A stretch of 50,825 nt of DNA. Source: Chiloscyllium plagiosum (lineage: Eukaryota). Both the position numbers and the translations under genes were made by a program. Below, piece by piece: positions 11,370-45,348 of this stretch; the stretch's first letter is position 1; each line of letters opens with the position of its first letter. The notes beneath the pieces are model-generated. The model ran no database searches, was not told the DNA's origin, and was given only the letters and a program-made list of their open reading frames with translations. The stretch lies in contig NC_057749.1 of the NCBI RefSeq assembly GCF_004010195.1, positions 12,561,773-12,612,597 on the forward strand. Direction: 5' to 3'.

Positions 11370-11588
11370 ACAAAAACAGAAGTTGCTGGAAAAACTCAGC
11401 AGGTCTGCAGCATCCGTGAAGAGAAATCAGTTAATGTTTTGGGGCCGGTGACCCTTTCCCCGAACTGAGGAAGAGTCACTGGACCTGAAACATTAACACT
11501 GGTTTCTCTTCACAGATTCTGCCAGATCAGTTAACCTTTTCCAGCAATTTCTGTTTTTGCTTCTGATTTATGGCATCTGCAGTTCTTT
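11370..11588. mobile_element. Short palindromic non-autonomous element, probably Penelope-terminal-repeat derived
   Basis: Arms caaaaacagaagttgctggaaaa... and ...ttttccagcaatttctgtttttg invert around ~11465; relics also at ~935-1050, ~29570-29650 and ~37095-37200. Confidence 0.65.
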
Positions 11589-12789: not shown

Positions 12790-13870
12790 TTGTATTTGAG
12801 GAACCTCAGGTTTTTGTAGGCTGTGGGAAGAGCATGGGGACTGCAGGGAGGATGAATGAACTGACCATGACACCATGGTACAGGGAGTATTCATGTGGGG
12901 GGTGGCAATGGGAATGCAGTAGTGATAGGGTCATTATCATTAGGGGGATAGGTACTATTCTTGGAAACCATAAGCAGGAGTCCTGAAGGCACAAAATAGA
13001 TGGGAAAGCAAGTGATGAGGATGACAGAGTCTGCAGAGGGGTATAGACAAATTAAGTGGGAGGACAGAAACTTAGCTGAAGGAGTATGATGTGGGAAAAT
13101 GAGACTTCATGCGCGTTGGCAAGGAGAATAGAGGAGTTGAGTTTTATTTAAATGGAGAAAAACTGCAGAAAACTGCAGCACAGAGAGATTTGGGACGCCT
13201 TATGCTTAAATCACAAAAAGATAGTATCCAAATTCAGCAAGTAACAAGGAAGGCAAGCAGAATGTTGGGCCTTCATTTCAATGACAGTGGAGTATAAGAA
13301 TAGGGAAGTATTGCTAAAACTCTACTAGGTGCTACTTTGAACATAGCAAGAATACTATGAATACTAGTTTTGATCCCCTTATCTAAGGAAAGATATACCA
13401 GCATTGGAGGCAGTCCAGAGAAGGTTCACTTGAATGACCCTGGGTATGGAGGTATTTTCTCATGAGATATTGAGTATGTTGGACCTGTACTTGCTGGAGT
13501 TCAAAAGAATGAGAGGAGACCTTACTGAAACACACAAGGTTCTTCAAGGATTTGACAGGATCAATGAGGAAAGGATCTTGTAGGAGAGTGTAGGACCAGA
13601 GGCCATAATCTCAGAATAAGGGGTCACGCATTTAAAACAGATGAGGAATTTCTTCTTGCAGAGATTGGTGAATCTATGGAATTCGTTACCACAAAGGGCT
13701 GTCAAGGATGGGTCATTAAGTATGTTCAAGGCTGAGAGAGAGAGATTTTTAATCTGTCAAGGACAATAGGGATAAAGCAGGAAAGTGGAGCTGAGGATTA
13801 TCAGATCAGCAATGATCTCATTGAATGGGGGAGCAGACTTGATGGGACTGAATGTTCTACTTCTGCTCCC
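12790..13870 (+). mobile_element. Decayed CR1-like LINE (3' ORF2 and tail, with deletions)
   Basis: QRDLG...QQV.RKA.RMLG remnants (ORF 13109-13297); tail gatcagcaatgatctcattgaatgg. Confidence 0.75.
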
Positions 13871-14561
13871 ATTCTGCTTGCCTTCCTTGTTACTTGTTTG
13901 ATGTTATTATACTGTGTTATGAAGAGATTTCAGAACAACTGGGAAATGCACAGAATGGGGAGATTGGTCAAATGCACAAACAGTAATCAGAGAAGTGTTC
14001 ACATAACTGTTAACGGTGTATAGTTATTGGATGTGTGTGTGTGATAATGGTGTGGGATTAGAGACCTCTTCTGTGTATATATGGAAAAAAGCCTTTATAT
14101 TCAAATTTGTATAATCTGTGCAGAAATACTCTGGCAGTTTTGGTTATTTGCACTTTGGAGATTGTGCTGCGGATGGGTGTCTGGAATAATGAATTGTCTT
14201 GCAATGTTTAATTTTCGTCTTGATCTAATTTCTGTCTCAGTTTTGCTGTGACTAAAGTTCACTGGCTTGAGATGGGTAGGAGGGGCAAGGGTTATCATGA
14301 GTCCATTTCTACATTGAGTGGTTGAGTGAGAGGTTTAGTCACCTGTCTGCATATCTTATTATTTGGGAATGGAATTGAAGCTACTGACCACTGCCTGTGG
14401 CTTTGCATGTGGTTAAACTGCTCTCTACCTCAGCCAATGACCGTCCATGTTTTTTGCTGCTGTGATATGTTTGTGTCTGGTTGAATTTTTGATTAACCTC
14501 ATCTTTCTCTTGTTGGATTGAATCGCTTTTGATGTTCTCTCTTGTATCCCTGACCTGTTAG

Positions 14562-25432: not shown

Positions 25433-25993
25433 TAGGAGAAAGTGAGGACTGCAGATGCTGGAGATCAGAGCTGAAAGTGTGTTGCTGGAAAAGCGCAGCA
25501 GGTCAGGCAGCATCCAAGGAGCAGGAGAATCAACGTTTCGGGCATGAGCCCTTCTTCAGGAATGAGGAAAGTGTGCCAAGCAGGCTAAGATAAAAGGTAG
25601 GGAGGAAGGACTTGGGGGAGCCACAGCAACATCTCCTTCCTCAGCACCTGCCTACGGAACTGACGGACCCCGCACGGACACCGGACTCCTCATTTCCCCT
25701 CCCCCACCTTGTCTCAGTCCCAACCGTCGAACTCAGCACCGCCTTACTAACTTGCAATCTTCTTCCTGACCTCTCCACCCCCACACCCACTCCGGCCTAT
25801 CACCCTCACCTTAACCTCCTTCCACCTATCGCAGTTCCAACCCCCCTCCCCCAAGTCCCTCCTCCCTACCTTTTATCTTAGCCTGCTTGGCACACTTTCC
25901 TCATTCCTGAAGAAGGGCTCATGCCCGAAACGTCAATTCTCTTGCTCCTTGGATGCTGCCTGACCTGCTGCGCTTTTCCAGCAACACCTTTTC
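25433..25993. mobile_element. Internally deleted Penelope-type element with ~150-bp inverted terminal repeats
   Basis: Arms ~25470-25620 and 25846-25997 are reverse complements; flanked by direct repeat aactgaagaga (25422-25432, 25994-26004); hammerhead-like core in each arm. Confidence 0.75.
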
Positions 25994-28676
25994 AACTGAA
26001 GAGACGGGTCAGGCTGGAATATGACAGGGAGCAAGGAATACCTGTTGGATTAAACTGCATTTATTTCAATGCAAGAGAGCTGACGGGTAAGGCCAGTGAA
26101 CTCAGGGCGTGGTTAGGTACGTGGGACTGTATATTTATAGCCATTACACAAACCTGTCTAAGGGAGAGACAGGATGGCAGAATTGTGTACCAGGGTACAG
26201 GTGCTTTAGGCCGGTTAGAGGTGTGGAAGCAGGGTAGGGGGAGTTCTATTTTTGATTAAGATGAGTATCACAGCAGTAATCAGAGATGAAATAACTGAAG
26301 GATCATCCAGTGAGGCTTTGTGGGTGGAGCTAAGAAATAAGGGGATGGCGACTTTATTGGGATTGTACTATAGGCCCCCAAATAGTCAACGGGAATTAGA
26401 GGAATAATATGCAGGGAGACTGAGGAGACCTGCAGGAGCAATAGAGTTGTCATAGTAGGAGATTTTAATTTTCCTAACATAGGCTGGGACTGCCAGAGCA
26501 TTAAGGGCTTAGATGTGGTGGACTTTGCTAAATGTGTCCAGGGAAGTTTCCTCAAGCAGAGGGGAAGGGGCAAAACTCAACCTATTCTTGGCAAATAGGG
26601 CAGGACAGGTGATGGAGGTGACAGTGAGGGAGCACTTTGGGACCAGTGACCATAGTTCTACTAATTTTTAAATTGTTATGGAGAGTGACAAAACTGGTTC
26701 ACAGGCTCAAGTTCTAAATTGGGACAAGGTGAATTTTGATGGAATTGGACAGGAGCTTACAGGGGTTGATTGGATCAGTTTTTTTGCAGGCAAAGGGACC
26801 TCTGGCAACTGGGAGGCCTTTAAAAGTGAGATAGCTGGAGTTCAAGCTCTGTACATTCCTGTGAGGGTGAAGGGAAAGATAGGCAGAAGCAGGGAACCCT
26901 GGATGACAAGAGATCTTGAGGCTTTGACCAAAAAAAAGGAGACATAGCTCAGGTACAGGCAGCTGGGATCAAGAGAATCCTTGGAGGCACGTAAGGAATA
27001 CAGGAGTTTACTGAAGAAGGAAATCATGACGGCAAAAAGTGGGCATGAGATAGCCTTGGAAAATTAGGGTGAATCCAAAAGGTTCTTTAAATATATTAAA
27101 GGAAAAAGAATAACTAGAGAGAGAATAGGGTCCCTGAAGGTTCAATGTATGTGTAGAACCGCAAGAAACGAGGGAGGCCCTCAATGAATTATTTCTCTTC
27201 TGTGTTTACCGTGGAGATAGATATGAAGACTTGAGAACTTGGGGAATTAGTAGTGACATCTTGGGGGACAGTCTGTGTCACAGTAGATGAGGTGTTGGAT
27301 GTATTAGAATATATGAAGGTGGATAAATCTCCTGGTCCTGATCAGATATATCCAAGAACACTACAAGGGACAAGAGAAGAAATTGTGGGAATCTGGCTAT
27401 TTTTGCATCATTGATAGCCATGGGTGAGGTCCCAGAAGACTGGACGGTAGCAAATGTTGTGTCCTTATTCAGGAAGAGCTGCAAAGAAAAGCCTGGGAAT
27501 TATATACCAGTAAGCCGAACATCTGTGGTAACTAAATTATTTGAGAAGTTTCTGTGGGTTAAAATATGCATGCATTTCGAAAGACAGGAGTAGTCAGCAT
27601 GGTTTTGTGAGTGGGAAATCGTGCCTCACAAATTTAAGAGTTCTTTGATGAAGTGACCAGGGCGGTAGATATAATCTGTATGGATTTCAGTAAGGCCTTT
27701 GATAAGGTTCCACATGGTAGGCTGCTCTGGAAGGTTAAGTTGCATGGAATCCAGGTGGAGCTGGCAAATTGGATACACAACTGGCTTGATGGTAGGAAGT
27801 AGAGGGTAATAGTGGGAGGATGCTTGTCAGATTGGAAACTTGTGACTAGTGGAATGCCTCAGGGATTGGTGTTGGGCCCATTACTGTTTGTTATCTATAT
27901 CAATGATTTGGATGAGAATGTACAAGGCATGATTAGTAAGTTTGGGGATGACACTGAAATAGGCGGGATCATGGACAGTGAGGAAGGTTATCAGAGATTG
28001 CAGAAGGACCTGGGGAAGTGGGCTGAGAAATGGCAAATGGAGTTTAATATCAATAAGTGTGAGGTCTTACATTTTGGAAAGTTAAATCAAGGTAGGAGTT
28101 TCATGGTGAATGGTAGGACCTTAAGGAGTGTAGTGAGGCAGAGGGACCTTGAAGTTCAGGTTCATAGTTCTCTGAAAGTGGAGTCACAAGTAGACAGGGC
28201 AGTGAAGAAGGCTTTTGGAACACTGGCCTCCATCAGTCAGGGCACTGAGTTTGGAAGTTGGGGAGTTATGTTACACTTATACAGGACGTTGGTGAGGCCT
28301 CATTCGAGTATTGTGTTCACTTTGGTCACCTTGTTATAGCAAGCACGTTATTAAACTGGGAAGAGTGCAGAAGAAATTTACATGGATGTTGCCTGGACTC
28401 AATGATCTGAGTTATATAGGGAGAGGTTGGATTTTTTTTTCTTTGGAGCATAGGAAGGTGAGGGGGGTATTTTAGAAGTGTATAAGATCATGAGAGGTAT
28501 GGATAGGGTGATTACACTCGATCTTTTTCCCAGGATTGGGGAATCGAAGACTAGAGGGCATCAGTTTAAGGTTAAAGGGGAAAGAATAAAAGGGAACTTG
28601 AGGGGCAACTTTTATACACAGACGGTGGAATAAGCTGTCAGCTGAAGTAGTTTGAGTGGGTACATTAACGACATTT

Positions 28677-33634: not shown

Positions 33635-34200
33635 TGAGAGCAGTCAACCATTCAGCCCCTTGAACCTGTTCTACCATTCGATAAAATAATGGCTGATCTG
33701 ATTTCTTCATATTAACACCTACCCTGATAACTTTTAACCTCACTTGCCTATCAAGACTATCCATCTCTAAATTACATTAAAATATTGTTTCTTCTGTCTT
33801 GAAGAAGAGTTCGAAAGAATCATGACCCACTTTGATAAATAAATTTCTCATTATCTGTTTTAAATGGGTGACTCTTTATTTAAAAATGATGACCTCTAGT
33901 TCTAGCCTCCCCACCTAGAGGAGACATCCTCTCCACAACCATCCTACCAAAACCTCTCAGGATTTTGTATGATTCAATCAAGTCATCCCTCACTGTTTTA
34001 AACTCCAGTGGATACAAACCCAGTCTATCCAACCTACTCATTCCAGTTATTAGCCAGGTAAATATTCTGTGAATTGCATTTACAGCCTTCCTTAAATGAG
34101 GAAACTAACACTGTACACAGTAATCTAAACGTGATCTCATCAATTCCCCGTATAAATGATGCACAACCTCCCGCCTTGTGACTTCAAATCCTCCCCCACC
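33635..34200 (-). mobile_element. Old CR1-like LINE 3' end
   Basis: ccattcagccccttgaacctg...atggctgatctg tail, similar to 2005-2320 and to the reverse complement of 13600-13870. Confidence 0.65.
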
Positions 34201-34379: not shown

Positions 34380-35009
34380 ACAGATAACAGGAAGTGTGAG
34401 ATTTTCAAAAGTTAATAAAACATTGTATTAGGGTTTTTGGAATTGACTAATTTTTTTTCTCATCCCACCATTTCCCATCTTGTGTTTGTTGCTCTTTTTC
34501 CAGTGCAGTTGGCTATGCTTCCTCTGAGTAACCTCATTTTTTTTAATACTGACCAAACAAAGTCAGTGATCAACTCTCCCTTATCATCAAGTCCATTAGA
34601 ACAATGATTACTATCTCCTCTTCACTATTGATCTGCATAGCTGGGTCTCTACATCCTATTCAGATGCATTGGTGATGAATCTAGAATTTAATCAAATTCT
34701 TTCCTACTTTTGGTGATCTCCAAACAACACAGCAAGGGTATAGGGCTAGACCACCCCTTGTCCACACAACAAGTGAAAGCCTTCATGAAAACAGAAGTAC
34801 TGATCTAAGGTTTGTTTTTTTTTGTGGAGGAATGCTTGACCACTCCTCCTAATATCATTGGCTCACTCTGTGAGAAACTGCAGAGGGGTACAGTGTTGTT
34901 AAAAGTGATTCTTAGGCAAGACCTGAGTACCTTAAGAAATATTGCTTTGTTATCAACCAACACCTTCATATTAACACCTACCCGGATAACTTTTAACCTC
35001 TCTCTACAG

Positions 35010-35093
35010 AATTATGGCCCAGATGAACTTACGGAAGAGATGACACATCTCACAGGTTTAATGAAGGATCTGAATGTTATCACTACGGCATAG
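35010..35093 (+). CDS. neo1: Neogenin last coding exon with P3 motif (NYGPDELTEEMTHLTGLMKDLNVITTA*)
   Basis: ctacag|AAT...GCA TAG; the C-terminal ITTA is neogenin-type, not DCC-type (ITGSAF). Confidence 0.96.
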   Translation, partial: NYGPDELTEEMTHLTGLMKDLNVITTA

Positions 35094-35810
35094 ATACAGA
35101 CAAACTGAAAATAGAGCAGGTCTGAAAGGAGTATGTACAAGACACCCAGAAGGGTCAGATACAAAACATAATGTGATGTGTTAAGTCTCGTGGAAATTGC
35201 CTTTGTGACGATCTCAGTCCAGTGGATCCAGACTTTTGGATAATCATAAAATCCAGTTAATGCCATGGAACCTGACAACTCTCAGCTCTGACAGACCTGG
35301 AAATGTACTGGAAACACCAGTATAGTGTTCGACATTCGATATCGTCTATTTACTGCGTGTTTACGTTTTCTGGTGTTATAAAAAGAATGTTGAATTGTTA
35401 CTTTGGTATGCAGATGTGATGTTTGACTGCCTCACCGTAAGTTGGCGTGAGATGCATCAATTACTAATGTGGCCATTTCTTGCTTCCTCTGCATCACACA
35501 GTGCCGTGGCATACAGACTCTAATCTACATCCTTCTGATCAAACTGCCAAGCTATCTGCGTTCATCACTGTGATCTCTTAGCAACCTTCAGAATATTACT
35601 GCTAGACTTGGCAAGTTAGCTGATTAAAGCACAATTAGGAAGAAGGAACTGGCAAGCCCGATCCACAAATAACTCGAGGCTTAGCATGACTCAAAGCACA
35701 TCGATTTAAACAAGTGTGCAGCAGTTGACATTTTATATGAAGAATAATATCTTCATGTGTTCTATTGGAAATCATTTAGCCATAAGAAAAAAAGCTAAAT
35801 ACACCCTACC

Positions 35811-36005
35811 AAATGGGTTTAGATTACAAATTCTTTCTTAAAGTGTATCAAAGGGGTTCCAAATACACAGCCAGCATTAAACCCTATTGAATGGGTTCCA
35901 ATTACATGGTCTTTATTAAACCTGATCAAATGGGCTCCCATTATGTAACCAGCATTAAACCCTAGAGATGGGGTCCAATGATTAAAAATTTCAGTAAGCA
36001 GGTTC
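35811..36005. repeat. Degenerate 39-bp minisatellite in the probable neo1 3' UTR
   Basis: aaatgggtt..attac..attaaacc units start at 35811, 35850, 35889, 35928 and ~35966. Confidence 0.75.
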
Positions 36006-38858
36006 AATTTCTCAGCCCCTCACTGAATCTTGTGGAGTGGTTCATTTTGGTTACTGGATCCATAGGGAACCCAGAAAATGGGTGAGTTTACTGTATGTTC
36101 AATGGACCTGGTTGAATGGGTGCCAATTATGTGACGCTTGGATCAACCCAATACATTGGGCTCAGATTAGATGACCTTGTTAATTAATGTAGTGAGTTTC
36201 AGTTACAAACAATTTTTTTTACCTTACCCACACCATCATTGTAATTGCTTCTACAAGTATAGGTTTTACTTTGTTTGTGAATATTGCTTCCCTATGTACA
36301 TCACCATGAATGTTAATATAACTGTTTAAGGAAATTTATTGTAATGAATATAACTGAACAAAGCTATTGTGAAGGTTTAGATTCTTCCCCCAGTTGTAGG
36401 CAGTAAAATCATTTTTGCACTTTTTTTTCATTCTTTTACAAAGGACTGTTTTCCTATGGCCTGTTTAGACTTAGAAAAACCTATAGTGTAACTGTAGTGT
36501 CCTCATTAGCAAAAGCAGCTTTTTGTTTTCCAAGGATGATGTAGGTGCAAATTGTTTATTAATCATGATGTAGAAATGATGCAAACTACTGTAGTTTATG
36601 TACAAAGACCTTTGCTAGTAGCATTATTCTGTGGCTTTTTTAAATTTCATGTTCTAATGTAATAACGGAATTCCAATACATTTTGTATTCAACCAGTAGG
36701 AGTGTGAACATAGACTTTTATTCATGGTCTACACGGCCTGTGTAATGGATGAATATATCGTGATGTATGCTGTTATGTAGCTGAAAGCTGCATAGGCTAG
36801 CTCTGCAGAAAGGAACTGATGGTCTCAGATAGGGAACTAAAACTGATCAGAGTTCCCCTAGATTATCATGAAAAATCAGCCCGAGTGCCCCCCACCTCAT
36901 TGCTATTATCCAAAGCTTGTTTGCTGAAAAATGTATGGGGAATATCTTGCCAATATTTATGTCGGCACCTTTGTGCCCTAATAAAGGGGATATTGGGAAT
37001 CAGCTGGGATTTGCTGTAGAGGGATCAGGGCAAAAGAAAAATTGAATGCAAATTTTGTGCTGCAGACCAGCATTTCCCCTCTCAATTTTGGAATTCTGAA
37101 GGAGAGTCATACTGCTCTCGCAACATGAGCTCTTGTTCTCTCACCATAGACTCTGCCAGACCTGCTGAGTTTCACCAGTATTCTCACTTTGTTTTAGATA
37201 TTGAATTGAGTTTTCACCAATTCCTTTTGGATACTAAGACAGCAACGAGTTGTTGTTCATCATACCCCCAACCATCATTACAGGTTTTCAAGAACAGAGC
37301 TTTGAAACTCCAGCCTTATTCCAGTTTAACAGCAGTAAATAATGATCCTCAGTATTTCTGGCGATAATGCAGAGGCTACGGCAATGCACCAAACAACTTA
37401 GCTTACCTGTTCAGACTTGATTTACACACTAAAGATAAGAATAATGCAATTAAATTGAAATTACTCTATTAGACTGAGACTAATATGATTTCTGTTCTGT
37501 AGTGACAGTTGCAAACTGCTCAGAAGGCTGTTCCATTTTAAAGATTCATTTTGTATTTGCAAACAGACAAGATTGGGAATTCAATTCTATACATTTTCAT
37601 TCATTTGATCAGAAGTACACTTCACAACCCATGCAGAGAAGCTGCCCTTAGAGATTCATGTTTTCTCAGAGTGAGGAGAATATGTAACATGAGAAGAAAC
37701 AGATTTAGTTGTGTAACATTGTAGCCACACTATAATCCATTACTCAGAAGGCTGTTCCATTTTAAAGATTCATTTTGTATTTGCAATACCTTGTTCAGGT
37801 GATAACACAATTTGTAATAGATGATGAGCATGTAATAGTCTGCTGAGGAGAACAATTGGAGAAAAATAACGAGTTCACAGTTTTGGTTTTAGTCTAGCTT
37901 TATAAAAAAATGTATATGTTATAACAGGTCTAAAATGTCTAATAAGTAGCTCATTCTTTGAAAACAAACTGACATTACAAAGCATTAGATTATAACTGAT
38001 CAGATGGGATTGAATTAAGCACTGTAATCACATTACACACTGCCATAACTGACCCTCTATCCACAGTCTCTACAGTAATAATCACTGCGCACACAATGGA
38101 TACTTGTATTAGCGAGTGGGTGGATAATACAGCCTTTGTATAAATGTACTTCAGTTGATGGAGGTGTTTTTATGGTTTGATGATGAATAGAACTTCTTGC
38201 TTCTGCAACATTCAATGAAATAGATAATGAAATCTATCAATATACTAACTACGCAGCTGGTTAACAAATATTTTAAATAGTTGTTTGGTAATACAGAACT
38301 TATTAACTGGAGTGTTCTGCATGGCAATGCCTCTAACAAATAGCATCTTCTTGTCAACCAATCTTAGATATAAATACTGCTTTCCTTCTACTTTAGTATT
38401 TCTAGTGAATAATCCTGATGAGTGCAAGACTAAGTATATCAAAAAAACCTCTTCTTTCTCACATATTTAAGTATTTCCAGAGAAAGAAATGTCAGGGCAA
38501 TAAACAGCCTCAGCAATCCTTCGCCAGTTAGACCAAAATTCGTGGTTTCCATTCCAGTTTGGTCCACCTGCAATAGATTCTCATGGGTTATCCCAACCAG
38601 AACTAATCTCTCTTTTTCAAATCCTGTATGACATGTATTGTTAAGAGTTCCAGCATGTGTTTTTTTTTCACAAACCAAACCTGCTGATGACCAGAACATT
38701 GGAAAGAATCGCCCTACTGCAGTGTTTCCAATGACCTCACACACTCGCACAGACTGCATCCATTACACAGCTGAGTTTAGAATGGTAATGGGTATTTTGT
38801 TGACTTTAGGGATCTGGCCAGCAATAATCCAAACACAGTAAACCCAAGTCCTGATTGT

Positions 38859-38965
38859 CTACATCAGTTCTCGCTTTTTGTTCAGGTCATCAGTGCCCGC
38901 ATCTACAGTGGACTCTGGTTCCAAGGGTAATGATGGAGGTTTCTGCGTTCGGATTGGGCATCCAC
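38859..38965 (-). CDS. bbs4: BBS4 last coding exon (GGCPIRTQKPPSLPLEPESTVDAGTDDLNKKRELM*)
   Basis: ctgcag|GT...ATG TAG on the minus strand; KPPSLPLEPE matches the recalled human BBS4 C-terminus. Confidence 0.88.
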
Positions 38966-39854
38966 CTGCAGTGAGGAAAATTCAGTCAGGGCACCAGCAT
39001 GTACAATATACAAACCACTTTTGTTAGAAAGCTTGGCAGGTTATCACAGGTAAATCAAACAGGTTTACTGACAAATATAAAATGTGGAGGCGGGGGGGGG
39101 GGGGGAAAGCCATGTTTAAAACACTGTGAAAAAGCAGTTTGGCCAATTAAAGAGAAACTGCATTGGAAATTCTAGAGATATACAATTATGTACGTGTCAA
39201 AAAGATTTGGATGAACATAAAGATCAAGGATTCAAATGGATGATTTCCTGAAAAAGTGTAATAGAACACAAAACACCAACAATATTTTTGGGTTCACTAA
39301 ATGTCAAAAAAGAGTAATGATAATTTTCTTTAAAAAATTCATAAAAAATTATGAGGAAGGGGATCCATGTTCCAGAGTCAAAAGACATCCAACTCCAAAC
39401 CACAGTAGCTTCAGGCCATTCTCACTGCTGCTCCACTAATCTACACATTTTTAAAGAGATTATAGAAGCTTCACTCATTGTCCAATTTTCCCTTTCCCTG
39501 GTGAAGATATGGAATCTTGCTAAGGTACAGCGCTACAGACAATTCTCCAGTCGCCATTCTTATAAAGTCCAGATGATGGACACTGATAGGCTATTTGACA
39601 GTAGAAAGCATCACATCCACCTTGCAGAAAGCAGCAAGTAAAACAAGAAATCCCTTACCAAATTTCCCTTTTCCTAGTCCCAAGATTCTGCAGTTGCAGT
39701 AAACATCAAGATTCAGAATTCCTCACTATTCATTTGTCTAAACTGGAATCATCTCTCAAACATTTACATAAACACTTCAATATTTATCTGAATTAACAGA
39801 TCTATAAATATGTAAGACCTCTGTGTCCAAAAAAAAGATTAAGTTGAGATATGT

Positions 39855-40402
39855 TGGACGGAGAGACCTAGAGATTCAGGTACATAGTTCCTTGAAAGCG
39901 GTGTCACAAGTTTAGTATGCTCGCCATCATTAGTCAGTACAGGAGTTGAGAGGTCATGTTATGGCTGTACAGGACACTGGTTAGGCCACTTTCAGAATAC
40001 TGCGTTCAATTCTGACCAGGATTGATGAAGACTGGATAGGCTGGGACTTTTTTTCCCTGGAGTATAGGCGGTTGAAGGGTCATCTTATAGAGATTTATCA
40101 AATCATGAGGGGCACAGATAAGGTCAATAGCAAAGGTCTTTTCCCTAGGGCATGGGAGTTCAAAACTAGAGGGCACAGGTTTAAGGCGAGAGGTAAAAAA
40201 TTTAAAAGAAACATGATGGATAACATTTTCACTGAAAGTGTGATGTGCATATGGAATGAGTTACAACATTTTAAAAGAAATTTGGACAGGTTTAGAAGGC
40301 TATGGACCAAATGCAGGCAAGTGGGACTGTTTTAGTGTGGGAAACCTGGTTGGCATGGATGAGTTGGACTGAAGGGTCTGTTTCAGTGCTATATGACTCT
40401 GT
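39855..40402 (+). mobile_element. Decayed CR1-like LINE 3' end
   Basis: ORF 40072-40335 (LIEIYQIMRG.DKVN...FPR...KTRGHRFK); tail atatgactct. Confidence 0.8.
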
Positions 40403-40492
40403 AAAAGAGACAATGACTATTTTCCCCAAATAGCGCTAACTTTAAGTGCTAACAAGTTCCCAGAATTTAGAGTTCGATGAGCTGCTCCTTAC

Positions 40493-40703
40493 CTGCAGAG
40501 AGCTGCATTGTTTTGCTATACCCTGCAGCTGATGACATAGCCTGACCTAGGGCCTGGTTAGAGCCCAGCGGTTGTTGGTTGGTGGTGGATTTACTGGATG
40601 GTGCTGGACGCTCTCTTGATTTGGAATCCTTTGCTGGTTTTGTCCAGACCAGATTCTCCCCGACCTGAAGAGCAGCTCCAATCTTCTGAGCCATGTCTAC
40701 CAG
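40493..40703 (-). CDS. bbs4: BBS4 penultimate exon ([23 protein letters not shown]...[20 protein letters not shown]...LSA)
   Basis: ttccag|CTG...GCAG|gtaagg, 211 nt, phase 0-1; matches human [23 protein letters not shown]...[20 protein letters not shown]. Confidence 0.95.
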
Positions 40704-40940
40704 CTGGAAAGTATTAATTTCTTGGCATCAGTCAACAAATATTCTCATCTCCATGTCAACCCTAAAACATTCAATCCTAGATCAGAGGAATAATTCAATA
40801 AAATTAAAGAAAAATATTTAGTTCCGTTGCAAAGGTGAAGCTTTGAAATGGGAAAACAAGTTTGTAAAATCGCCTGTGCATCTTGTAAAAATAAAGCCTC
40901 AAGTCAATTGTAGCAATGCATGAATGCAGTAAAGTCAATA

Positions 40941-41151
40941 CAGGTTGTTCTGCTAAAACACGAGAGTTGTGTTCCTCTGCAACCGTGTGCTGTAGAAAAT
41001 CACACTATGGAAAACTGCTATAGGAAATCAGATATAGAAAATTGCTATACTCATTCACTAGAAAATTTGTGTTATCCAAACAATGCCCACAATTAGTCAA
41101 TTGTGTTATAGCCAATTCGCACTGATGAAATACACGTTATAGCAGAACCTG
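40941..41151. mobile_element. MITE, Tc1/mariner-pogo-like
   Basis: Imperfect TIRs caggttgttctgctaaaac / gttatagcagaacctg, TA on the left flank, internal ctat(a/g)gaaaa repeats. Confidence 0.6.
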
Positions 41152-41655
41152 TGAACTAACTACTAGTGGATCTCCAGTAGAGAGGTGTGTTTTCTGACAA
41201 TCTGTATAGTGTTTTACAAACTCTGTGCCCTTTGAAGTAAGGAACACATTGATTTTTGCATCTTATCAAATCTTTAGGTAAAACCAAAAGCCAGTTTGCA
41301 CACAGCAAGCCCCAATGAGCAGCACCAAGATAGTGTTCAATTAATCTAGTTCTGATGCTGTTGTTTGATGGCAACCCCTTACTCAGGACGCCTGAAGAAC
41401 AAATAGATCTCAAGTAGTACCATTGGATTTTTAATACTTACAGAACTTCAGTTTGACATCCTACTTGAAGCGCTGAAGTTCCAATAGGAACAGGATCACT
41501 CAGTCCTGAAAGCCTACACCTGCCTCCCACCTCCATTTACCCAACTCTACTCCATATCCCTTACTAATGTACTATCAATGCAATATACATTTTCAAAATA
41601 CAAATCTCAACAGGAACATCCACAATGCAGTCTTTAAACTGTAGTACGCCCAAGT

Positions 41656-44600
41656 TAGAACATAGAACAGTACAGCACAGAACAGGCCCTTGAGCCCACG
41701 ATGTTGTGCCGACCACTGATCCTCATGTATGCACCCTCAAATTTCTGTGACCATATGCATGTCCAGTAGTCTCTTAAATGTCCCCAATGACCTTGCTTCC
41801 ACAACTGCTGCTGGCAACGCATTCCATGCTCTCACAACTCTCTGGGTAAAGAACCCGCCTCTGACATCCCCTCTATACTTTCCTCCAACCAGCTTAAAAC
41901 TATGACCCCTCGTGTTAGTCATTTCTGCCCTGGGAAATAGTCTCTGGCTATCGACTCTATCTATGCCTCTCATTAACTTGTATACCTCAATTGGGGAAAA
42001 TAGCCATTGTCTCTTTTACAGAGTCATATAGCATTGAAACAGACCCTTCAGTCCAACTCGTCCATGCCAACCAGGTTTCCCACACTAAAACAGTCCCACT
42101 TGCCTGCATTTGGTCCATAGCCTTCTAAACCTGTCCAAATTTTTTTTTAAATGTTGTAACTCATTCCATATGCACATCACACTTTCAGTGAAAATGTTAT
42201 TCATCATGTTTCTTTTAAATTTTTCACCTCTCGCCTTAAACCTGTGCCCTCAATTAGGTCCCCTCTCCTCCTCCTTTTTCCAATGAAAAAAGTACGAGCT
42301 CAGTCAACCTCTCTTCATAAGATAAGCCCTCCAGTCCAGGCAGCATCCTGGTAAACCTCCTCTGAACTCTCTCCAAAGCATCCACATCTTTCCTATAATA
42401 GGGCGACCAGAACTGGACGCAGTATTCAAAGTGTGGTCTAACCAAAGTTTTATAGAACTGCAACAAGATCTCACGACTCTCAAACTCAATCCCCCTGTTA
42501 ATGAAAGCCAAAACACCATATGCTTTCTTAACAACCCTATCCACTTGGGTGACCATTTTAAGGGATCTATGTACCTGCACACCAAGATCCCTCTGTTCCT
42601 CCACACTGCCATATCCTATCCTTAATCCTGTACTCAGCTTTCAAATTCAACCTTCCAAAATGCATCACCTCGCATTTATCCAGGTTGAACTCTATCTGCC
42701 ATCTCTCAGTCTATCTCTGCATCCTGTCAATGTCTCGCTGCAGCCTACAACAGCCCTCTATACTGTCAACGACACCTCCAACCTTTGTGTCGTCTGCAAA
42801 CTTGCTGACCCATCCTTCAATCCCCTCATCCAAGTCATTAATAAAAATTACAAACAGTAGAGGCCCAAGAACAGAGCCCTGTGGAACACCACTCACCACA
42901 GACTTCCAAGCAGAATATGTTCCTTCTACTACCACTCGCTGTCTTCTGTTGGCCAGCTAATTCTGTATCCAGACAGATAAGTTCCCCTGTATCCCATTCC
43001 TCCTGACCTTCTGAATGAGCCTACCATGGGGAACCTTATCAAATGCCTTGCTAAAGTCCATATACACCACATCCACAGCTCGTCCCTCATCAACTTTTCT
43101 AGTCACATCCTCAAAGAACTCGATAAGGTTTGTGAGGCATGACCTGCCCCTCACAAAGCTGTGTTGACTGCATTTAATCAAGCCATGCTCTTTCAGATGG
43201 TCATAAATTCTATCCCTCAGAATCCTTTCTAACACCTTGCAGACGACAGACGTGAGACTTACTGGTCTGTCATTGCCCAGGATTTCCCTATTTCCTTTCT
43301 TGAAGAGAGGAATTACATTTGCCTCTCTCCAGTCCTCAGGTACGACTCCAGTGGAGAGCTAGGATGAAAGATCTTCGCAAGTGGCGAAACAATTGCATTT
43401 CTCGTTTCCCAAAGCAGCCGAGGACAAATCTGGTCCGGGCCTGGCAACTTGTCAATCTTAATGTTTGACAAAATTTTCAGCACATCAGCTTCCTCTATCT
43501 CTATCCATTCCAGCATGCACGCCTGCTCTTCAAAGGTTTCATTCACTACAAAGTTCATTTCTTTCGTAAGGACAGAAGCAAAAACTCCCTAATCCGTTCT
43601 GCCAAGCCTTTCTCGTGCCCCTTCCTGGCTCTCCTCAGACCATTTTTAACCTCCTTCCTCCTGTAGAGCTCAGCTTGACCTTAGCTTCCTCCACCTTATG
43701 TAAGCTGCCTTCTTCCTTTTGACGAGAAACTCCACCGCTCTCATCATCCAAGGTTCCTTTATCTTACCACTTCTTGCCTGTCTCAGAGGGACATATTTAT
43801 TCATCACTTGCAACAACTGTTCCTTAAACAGTCTCCACATGTATATAGTGCCTTTACCATGGAGCAATTGCTCCCAATCCATGCTTCCTAACTCATGTCT
43901 AATCATAGTTTCTTCTTCCCCAATTAAATATCCGCCCATTTTGCCTAATCCTCTCCTTCTCTATAGCTATGTAGAATGTGAGGCAGTTGTGGTCACTATC
44001 ACCAAAATGCTGTCCCACCACAAGATCTCATACCTCCCCGGCTCGTTTCCGAGCACCAAGTCTAGAATGGCCTCTCCCCTCGTCGGCCTGTCAACGTACT
44101 GAGTTAGGAAACCCTCCTGAACACACCTTACAAAAACAGCTCCATTCAAATCTTCTGCGTGAAGGAGGTTCCAATCAATATTGGGAAAGTTAAAGTCACC
44201 CATTACAACAACCCTACTACGTCCACACTTTTCCAAAATCTGCCGACCTATGCTTTCTTCCATCTCCCTGCTGCTATTGGGGGGCCCTAACGAGGTGACT
44301 GCTCCCTTGCTGTTCCTAATTTCCACTCATACTGACTCGGTAGGCAGATCTTCCTCGACAATGGAAGCTTCTGTAGCTGTGATACCCTCTCTGATTAGTA
44401 GTGCTACACCCCCTCCTCTTTATCCCCCCCTCCCTATTCTTTTTTTTTATTCCTGATACTCCTTGTGTTAAAGCAAACACACTTTAACTGATCCCTTGAT
44501 TCTTTCCCAGGAAATTCCTTCCCACTGGCTGGTCTACCTCTTGCTATTGCCTCATCTACATCAACTCTCACCACCGGTATATAGCTCAGGTTCCCACCCC

Positions 44601-44950
44601 CCTGCCATACTAGTTTAAACCCTCTTGAACTACTCGAGCAAACCTTCCACCCAGGACATTGGTCCCCTTCCAGTTTAGGTGCAACCAGTCCTTCATGTAC
44701 AGGTCCCACCTTCCCCAGAAGGCATCCCAATTATCTACATATCTGAAGCCCTCCCTCCTACACCAGCTGCGCAGCCACGTGTTAAGCTGTGCCCGCTCCC
44801 TGTTCCTTGCCTCGCTATCTCGTGGCACCAGTAGTAAACTAGAGAACACTACTCTGTTCGTCCTGCTTTGCAGCTTCCATCCTAACTCCCTGAAATCACT
44901 TTTTATATCCTCGATCCTTTTCCTGGCTATATCATTAGTGCCAATATGTA
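41656..44950 (-). mobile_element. CR1/HER1-like LINE: end of ORF1 (SGNH esterase-like) plus frameshifted ORF2
   Basis: ORF 44610-44849 (LNTWLRSWCRREGFR...DLY..D.LHL); APE and RT motifs in ORFs 43967-44326, 42957-43235, 42711-42935 and 42254-42604; ttctatgttcta tail. Confidence 0.92.
41991..42251 (-). repeat. 261-bp inverted copy of 40169-40429 inserted into the LINE
   Basis: Manual alignment gives 7 mismatches and no gaps; host 8-mer cctcaatt on both sides. Confidence 0.92.
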
Positions 44951-45203
44951 ATATGTGCTATTTCAGAACTCAGACTGCTGAACAGGTTAGGCTGAAAAGT
45001 AAGACAGATGTTAAGGGAAAAGACAAAGCAGTATCAAAAGTATTTAATTTAAAATCAATTGTTTAGATGGTATCTGATGATATCGCCTCACAGTGTTACA
45101 TCTCTAGTTGAGATCTGGGAAATGAAATTGAATCTTGAATTCAAGATTATTGGACTTGCAATAAGTTGACAATGATTACATTGATGAGATATTGTGACAG
45201 TAC

Positions 45204-45348
45204 CTCTGGATCAAACTCTGGCATGTTACTACTGGCTTTCAGTTTATTGATCTTCTGCTCCATTTCCTGATATTGGTGAAGGGCTCCCTTTTTATCCCCT
45301 TGATTGTACAGTAAAATGGAATAGTTTAAGTTCACCAGTGGGTTTGAC
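45204..45348 (-). CDS. bbs4: BBS4 TPR exon ([48 protein letters not shown])
   Basis: gtatag|G...GAG|gtactg, 145 nt, phase 2-0; matches human [32 protein letters not shown]. Confidence 0.95.

Follow-up and report, generated by a model that had tools for sequence, protein, structure and literature searches.

The 3′ ends of neo1 and bbs4

In the window, by which we mean the whole 50,825-nucleotide stretch of Chiloscyllium plagiosum DNA that was analysed, neogenin (neo1) on the forward strand and bbs4 on the reverse strand converge, and the 3′ end of each gene lies within the stretch (Table 1). The last coding exon of neo1 ends near position 35093, as located by tblastn of P0148. The BBS4 C-terminus encoded in the window matches the C. 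plagiosum RefSeq protein (EMEQK..., ending KKRELM). The 211-nt bbs4 exon at the centre of this study had been called the penultimate exon in an earlier note on this DNA; this position agrees with the C. plagiosum RefSeq model, which ends KKRELM, but not with the C. punctatum and Hemiscyllium models, which continue further. The exon is conserved. Its donor, CAG/GTAAGG, is near consensus, and its acceptor tract has 10 pyrimidines in 20 positions, fewer than any other bbs4 acceptor that we scored (13−15), where splice-site strength was judged by pyrimidine count alone.

This exon sits between two arms, A and B, which a repeat finder and a direct comparison both identified as reverse complements of each other over 261 nt with 7 mismatches (6 transitions and 1 transversion; BLASTN E value within the window, 1e-123), just as the earlier note had described them. 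The arms are separated by 1561 nt. The distance to the exon is 63 nt for arm A, on the donor side, and 1287 nt for arm B, on the acceptor side, in agreement with the previous estimates of 63 nt and about 1.3 kb. The pair is the highest-identity non-self match longer than 200 nt in the window, at 97% versus 65−84% for the other LINE-LINE matches. The window also holds other short near-identical local copies.

Table 1 Features of the bbs4 inverted repeat and its surroundings (window coordinates)
Feature	Position	Strand	Remarks
bbs4 next exon, coding part to RELM and stop	38859..38965	-	carries the skip-frame stop, 38905-38903
Donor LINE fragment, C-terminal ORF2 end and tail	39820..40402 (approximate)	+	two internal deletions (~30 and ~17 nt) against the paralogs in the window
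Arm A (donor)	40169..40429	+	3′ end of a decayed LINE (to ~40402), then 27 flanking nt; within the intron that follows the exon
27-nt flank outside the LINE, also present in the copy	40403..40429	+	missing in 8 other aligned LINE-tail stretches
bbs4 exon, 211 nt, residues ~414-484	40493..40703	-	AG/GT; in mRNA contig of run X17
Host LINE, broken, high-copy, interrupted by arm B	41656..44957	-	Pfam PF13472, PF14529, PF00078
Target-site duplication, left copy (CCTCAATT)	41985..41992	+	multi-copy contigs/reads join 41984>42248
Arm B (inverted copy)	41991..42251	-	255 nt net; a further 2 nt and 4 nt are microhomologies with the target repeats
Target-site duplication, right copy (CCTCAATT)	42248..42255	+	same paralogous joint, 41984>42248
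bbs4 upstream exon, 145 nt	45204..45348	-	depth accounting

Arm B is a copy of the arm A donor within a different LINE

Arm A runs leftward into more of its own LINE and rightward into the intron; arm B interrupts a different LINE. The donor LINE, which we take to be a CR1 element, gave no Pfam match in the frame of its own fragment. The host LINE retains remnants of a GDSL-esterase ORF1, an endonuclease and a reverse transcriptase detected with Pfam, a layout typical of the CR1/L2 group, and in reads and contigs it stands at multi-copy depth with loose ends at 41656. When the two arms were compared with eight other LINE tails in the window, the two deletions (~30 and ~17 nt) proved to be confined to the arms, as did the 27-nt flank, and the flank matched nothing in the window except both arms, even when up to 8 mismatches were allowed. 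The other LINE-tail copies in the window share 54−65% identity, versus 97% between the arms. The private deletions and the flank indicate that arm B was copied from the donor of arm A, so that the previously claimed non-independence of the copy, with about 27 nt of carried flank, is borne out.

The insertion has left a distinct scar. The copy overlaps the target repeats by TT at its left end and CCTC at its right end (2 nt and 4 nt, respectively), the 2-nt junction microhomology being weak on its own. The 3′ end of the copy reads ...TTTTCCCCAA, 27 nt past the LINE tail, and has neither poly(A) nor a family repeat tail. A joint, 41984>42248, which skips 263 nt with 8 ambiguous letters, was present in all four of the runs compared (4 of the 24 runs listed). 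Its depth, 164−438 in three contig sets versus ~2.5−12 for single-copy sequence, indicates that the joint comes from other copies of the host family; for the same reason, we rejected it as an empty allele of the locus itself. The pre-insertion (empty) state is therefore seen in paralogous LINE copies, which have one CCTCAATT, indicating that the 8-nt duplication arose with the insertion. The earlier observation of a duplicated 8-mer in another LINE is thereby confirmed.

Origin of the inverted copy

We consider it likely that arm B is an old, near-neutral local templated insertion, a repair scar without harmful effect. Two features of the sequence speak for local templating: the donor lies close by, and the copy has no tail of poly(A) or repeats. 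In the proposed course of events, a staggered break in the LINE copy within the bbs4 intron would have left 8-nt 3′ overhangs, one of which would have annealed through a 2−4-nt microhomology to a site 1.6 kb away and primed synthesis there; 261 nt would then have been copied in inverted orientation, the other end rejoined through microhomology, and CCTCAATT duplicated by fill-in synthesis. DNA template switching is likelier than an RNA-templated route, and both leave the same scar, since the copied piece contains neither an intron nor poly(A) by which the two could be distinguished.

Pol-theta-type templated insertions are one close known class, and a literature search on templated sequence insertion returned no match. 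Microhomology-mediated templated insertion (MMB-TI) is another: its signature is an inverted nearby copy with junction microhomology, and germline variants occur (PMC8421209). The present insertion resembles MMB-TI/MMBIR in its inverted orientation, in the local origin of its sequence and in the microhomology at each junction, but it differs in its length of 261 nt, in its 8-nt target duplication and in its template 1.6 kb away, since the events of the cited tool, MMBSearch, are defined as lying at most 100 bp from the template (PMC8421209). This difference in template distance speaks against our preferred explanation, as does the target duplication, which at 8 nt is also typical of retrotransposition.

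Alternatively, a LINE enzyme or an RNA-templated repair polymerase could have reverse-transcribed the donor together with the 27 nt, leaving a 5′-truncated, 3′-transduced copy nearby with the same consequences for the RNA. 3′ transduction by LINE insertions is well known. The 8-nt target duplication, the LINE-internal truncation, the short carried 3′ flank and the microhomology at both ends all fit such a route, and short duplications with microhomology accompany 5′-truncated L1 copies made by target-primed reverse transcription (PMC2912911). The template could have been neo1 read-through RNA on the forward strand or nascent bbs4 RNA on the reverse strand; both strands are plausibly transcribed, and on the forward strand neo1 ends with an AATAAA that precedes arm A by 1670 nt. 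However, the 3′ end of the copy carries no poly(A) and no family repeat tail, the donor LINE is decayed, and the insertion lies beside its donor, where a free retrocopy, at less than 2 kb in a multi-gigabase genome, would be very unlikely. We thus regard reverse transcription as an unlikely source of arm B. The earlier reading of the scar as a template-switch signature goes too far: the 8-nt target duplication, the 5′ truncation, the 3′ flank and the microhomology are not exclusive marks of template switching, because target-primed reverse transcription also leaves short duplications and microhomology (PMC2912911). It is the proximity of the donor that speaks for local templating.

A predicted RNA duplex around the exon

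In the bbs4 pre-mRNA, the arms left by the templated insertion are predicted to form a very stable, near-perfect duplex around the exon. The MFE fold of 39800−42400 contains 256 pairs between the arms (duplex energy, -468 kcal/mol), with the exon in the loop, and the fold of the exon with arm A alone is unremarkable (z=+1.49). The best inverted match between flanking introns reaches 440 bits at this exon versus at most 38.3 bits at the other 14 exons, the baseline being the 15 internal exons of the window (13 of neo1 and 2 of bbs4), in which the neo1 exon limits are approximate (tblastn, with one exon added by eye). With the insert masked, the match at the bbs4 exon drops to 36.5 bits, indicating that the duplex owes its existence to the insertion alone. 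When a loop of 1561 nt is placed with both arms in introns, it encloses an exon at 1879 of 3565 window positions (53%); hence, no selection is needed to account for the straddling of the exon.

Inverted pairs are enriched around skipped exons, and when one arm was removed from reporters, 7 of 8 showed less skipping, by ~1 to >40% (PMC13019944). Reverse complementary matches (RCMs) promote skipping and back-splicing alike (PMC8330042; PMC13019944). In human, the inverted pairs around skipped exons are of nearly the same stability as those around constitutive exons (d=-0.12), numerous constitutive exons are flanked by such pairs, and stability predicts skipping only in combination with a weak acceptor and a strong donor (PMC13019027). 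The pyrimidine-poor acceptor and the near-consensus donor of the bbs4 exon make some effect of the duplex plausible. By extension from this known RCM biology, the duplex would probably cause some low-level back-splicing, skipping and A-to-I editing.

By analogy with the RCMs and inverted Alu pairs that flank skipped or circularised exons, reportedly including the TBXT case, the arms could in principle work like an inverted Alu pair. In both settings, a single exon lies between complementary intronic arms that are roughly as long as an Alu, with one arm near a splice site, and a lineage-restricted gain is likely. The bbs4 arms differ in that they stem from one local copying event (97% identical) rather than from two independent insertions, and in that they consist of shark LINE sequence and surround an exon whose skipping would shift the frame.

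The exon is included in one assembled RNA set

Run X17 consists of contigs, of which the whole set was examined, and is identified as RNA by its spliced contig; its tissue and library type are unrecorded. Record 9 of this run is an unbroken 1200-nt contig with a depth of 11.8, in which the pieces 38538−38963 and 40491−40703 are both present and the exon is included. Since normal splice joints were missing from the joints listed (15 of 401), we used depth accounting: record 9 and two low intron contigs explain the four checked exon-containing bins within 0.01, with the upstream exon included, and a separate skip or back-splice contig would have added ~0.25 to the depth. The skip junction, 45204>38965, was absent from the X17 contigs at their mean word depth of 11.8. 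For the back-splice, 40493>40703, no such contig fits the X17 depth, a result that would miss circles if the library was poly(A)-selected. If a junction is assumed to need 2 counts, a rough Poisson estimate at this depth puts the detection chance at 90% for a 25% isoform and 38% for a 10% isoform; the latter would be missed about 6 times in 10, and contigs also drop rare variants.

Run X21 (raw single-cell, poly(A), ~2% read) placed 225 bases, or ~1−2 reads, on the exon bin, and paralogous LINE reads dominate both arms in the RNA data, where they would mask any A-to-G clusters left by editing. Among the seven Chiloscyllium and Hemiscyllium RefSeq BBS4 isoforms, a biased set clustered on the exon-containing protein, none lacks the exon. 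Taken together, the exon is normally included, and inclusion is the only form assembled in one RNA sample. The X17 result rules out no more than major skipping, in that one sample. We judge the chances of a detectable low-level circle or of editing to be about evenly balanced, and those of major or regulated skipping to be well below even. In C. plagiosum, a circRNA study lists 4,558 circles, among them liver circles of 170−273 nt in its Table 3; the portion of the paper covered here does not mention BBS4, and none of the 8 circles tabulated there has a length of 211 nt (PMC7759564).

Consequences of skipping and the case for a regulatory element

Skipping of the exon would shift the reading frame to VDAQSERRNLHHYPWNQSPL followed by a stop at 38905−38903. 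The earlier note had anticipated this product (...FDPE-VDAQSERRNLHHYPWNQSPL and stop, in the last exon), and its prediction is correct for the form in the window; in the longer form, the stop lies 40 nt before the next donor. By the 50-nt rule for escape from NMD, the skip stop would escape in either gene model. In an AlphaFold model of BBS4 (30 sequences; mean pLDDT, 76), the exon holds the helix 413−425, which follows the last TPR helices (block pLDDT ~64−72), and a low-confidence helix, 463−474, the residues of which are largely invariant in the alignment; skipping removes invariant residues within 458−473. According to the model, skipping would deprive the protein of both the last solenoid helix and the conserved helix, so that loss of function is a likelier outcome than a useful isoform. 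BBSome structures have 386−391 of the 519 BBS4 residues built. A literature search on skipping of BBS4 exon 15, as we presume the exon to be numbered from human, gave no paper on the subject as judged by title and the start of the abstract.

Could the duplex have been kept as a cis-element for a regulated circRNA, or for an NMD-escaping truncated BBS4 in some tissue? The exon has by far the strongest flanking match among the 15 exons (440 versus ≤38.3 bits), the skip stop is suitably placed in both gene models, circles of a comparable size (170−273 nt) have been reported in C. plagiosum liver (PMC7759564), and the repeat has persisted for about one species split's worth of divergence. However, the arms have diverged at the intronic rate, and on the bbs4 strand only 2 of their 7 differences can still pair, as G-U, X17 has inclusion only, the RefSeq isoforms (a biased sample) all contain the exon, and skipping would remove the helix 413−425 and the invariant residues 458−473. 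We therefore consider a functional element improbable; nothing points to selection on, or regulation by, the duplex.

A wider proposal would be that repair-made local inverted copies, and not independent insertions, supply the near-perfect flanking duplexes in sharks, where neighbouring LINEs are mostly too diverged for good pairing, and that in some bamboo sharks this particular copy has given rise to a 211-nt bbs4 circle specific to the lineage, along with a truncated BBS4 that escapes NMD, is confined to certain tissues and changes BBSome function. We give this proposal little credence. The locus would gain greater importance only if the regulated truncated BBS4 or an abundant circle were true. 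As a probable repair scar, it offers a clean, dated example of a repair-type insertion that creates a flanking RNA duplex from scratch, and a natural test: a conserved exon of a ciliopathy gene, the skipping of which would shift the frame, apparently tolerates around it a 261-bp duplex that is 97% perfect and has an arm 63 nt from the donor. Should close relatives differ in arm B, their comparison would provide a direct measure of the skipping, circularisation and editing caused by one duplex outside mammals.

Age of the copy

The two arms differ at 7 of 261 positions (2.7%; 95% interval, 1.1−5.4%). Between the window and the single-copy contigs of a second individual, 3 of 3489 positions differ (0.09%; Fisher p=7e-7 versus the arms), and for those of a related bamboo-shark species (species B) the figure is 78 of 3199 (2.4%; Fisher p=0.83 versus the arms), the latter tally including a cluster of 8 listed differences at 38706−38724, and both omitting three LINE-only, paralogous-looking pieces (records 4 and 5 of run X12 and record 20 of run X2). 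An arm divergence close to that of the species split and far above that between individuals indicates that the copy is old and is no assembly echo. From the sequence divergence, arm B would be about as old as the split of the two bamboo-shark species.

An artefact of assembly or library preparation (a chimera in inverted orientation) is very improbable, as is an allele private to a single animal. No arm-B junction contig of either species was found among the 24 of 158,875 pieces listed for two DNA runs, where the listings at 90% likeness are crowded by paralogous LINEs (15 of 401 joints, 40 of 493 letter differences and 24 of 158,875 pieces listed), but the arms differ from each other far more than individuals do, a chimera would reproduce its template almost without error, and the host LINE resumes exactly after the 8-nt duplication confirmed by the paralogs. 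In species B, LINE sequence is present at both the donor and the host positions, and unique contigs run into both.

Convergent 3' ends of neo1 and bbs4

The neogenin gene neo1 (forward strand) and bbs4 (reverse strand) lie tail to tail, and less than 4 kb separates their stop codons (35093-38860). Since neither AATAAA nor ATTAAA was found on the bbs4 strand from 38900 to 36722, and a signal of this type is present on the neo1 strand at 38499, the 3' UTRs of the two genes may overlap.

The bbs4 3' end is not the same from species to species. The C. punctatum BBS4 X1 protein has an additional final exon, RSYRLTENSTDE, which maps to 31053-31015, antisense within a neo1 intron. The donor near 38863 reads AG/GT in organism B, a related species whose single-copy contigs were compared with the window, whereas the window has AT/GT at this point and the bbs4 frame runs directly into a stop. 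Eight of the substitutions listed between organism B and the window are tightly clustered at 38706-38724, possibly reflecting a micro-inversion or a template switch.

Other repeats in the window

Several further repeats were found. The downstream member of the 40-nt pair is the tract immediately upstream of the last neo1 acceptor, with its copy on the upstream side, and the pair may be a further local templated copy. The perfect 27-nt inverted repeat may have arisen as a short templated copy, or it may be the scar of an inversion. The 152-nt inverted repeat looks like a repeat-element structure, and the 39-nt tandem repeat probably lies within the neo1 3' UTR.

Positions of repeats and palindrome in the window
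Feature	Position	Location
Imperfect palindrome, ~190 nt, 77%	11371-11559	neo1 intron
Perfect 27-nt inverted repeat	13238-13264 / 13870-13896	flanks LINE-like piece
152-nt inverted repeat, 95%, 225-nt spacer	25469-25620 / 25846-25997	within single neo1 intron
40-nt direct copy, 95%	33705-33744 / 34964-35003	same neo1 intron, 1.26 kb apart
Degenerate 39-nt tandem repeat	35800-35979	downstream of neo1 stop
Perfect 44-nt direct repeat, 180-nt spacer	37519-37562 / 37743-37786	between neo1 and bbs4 stops
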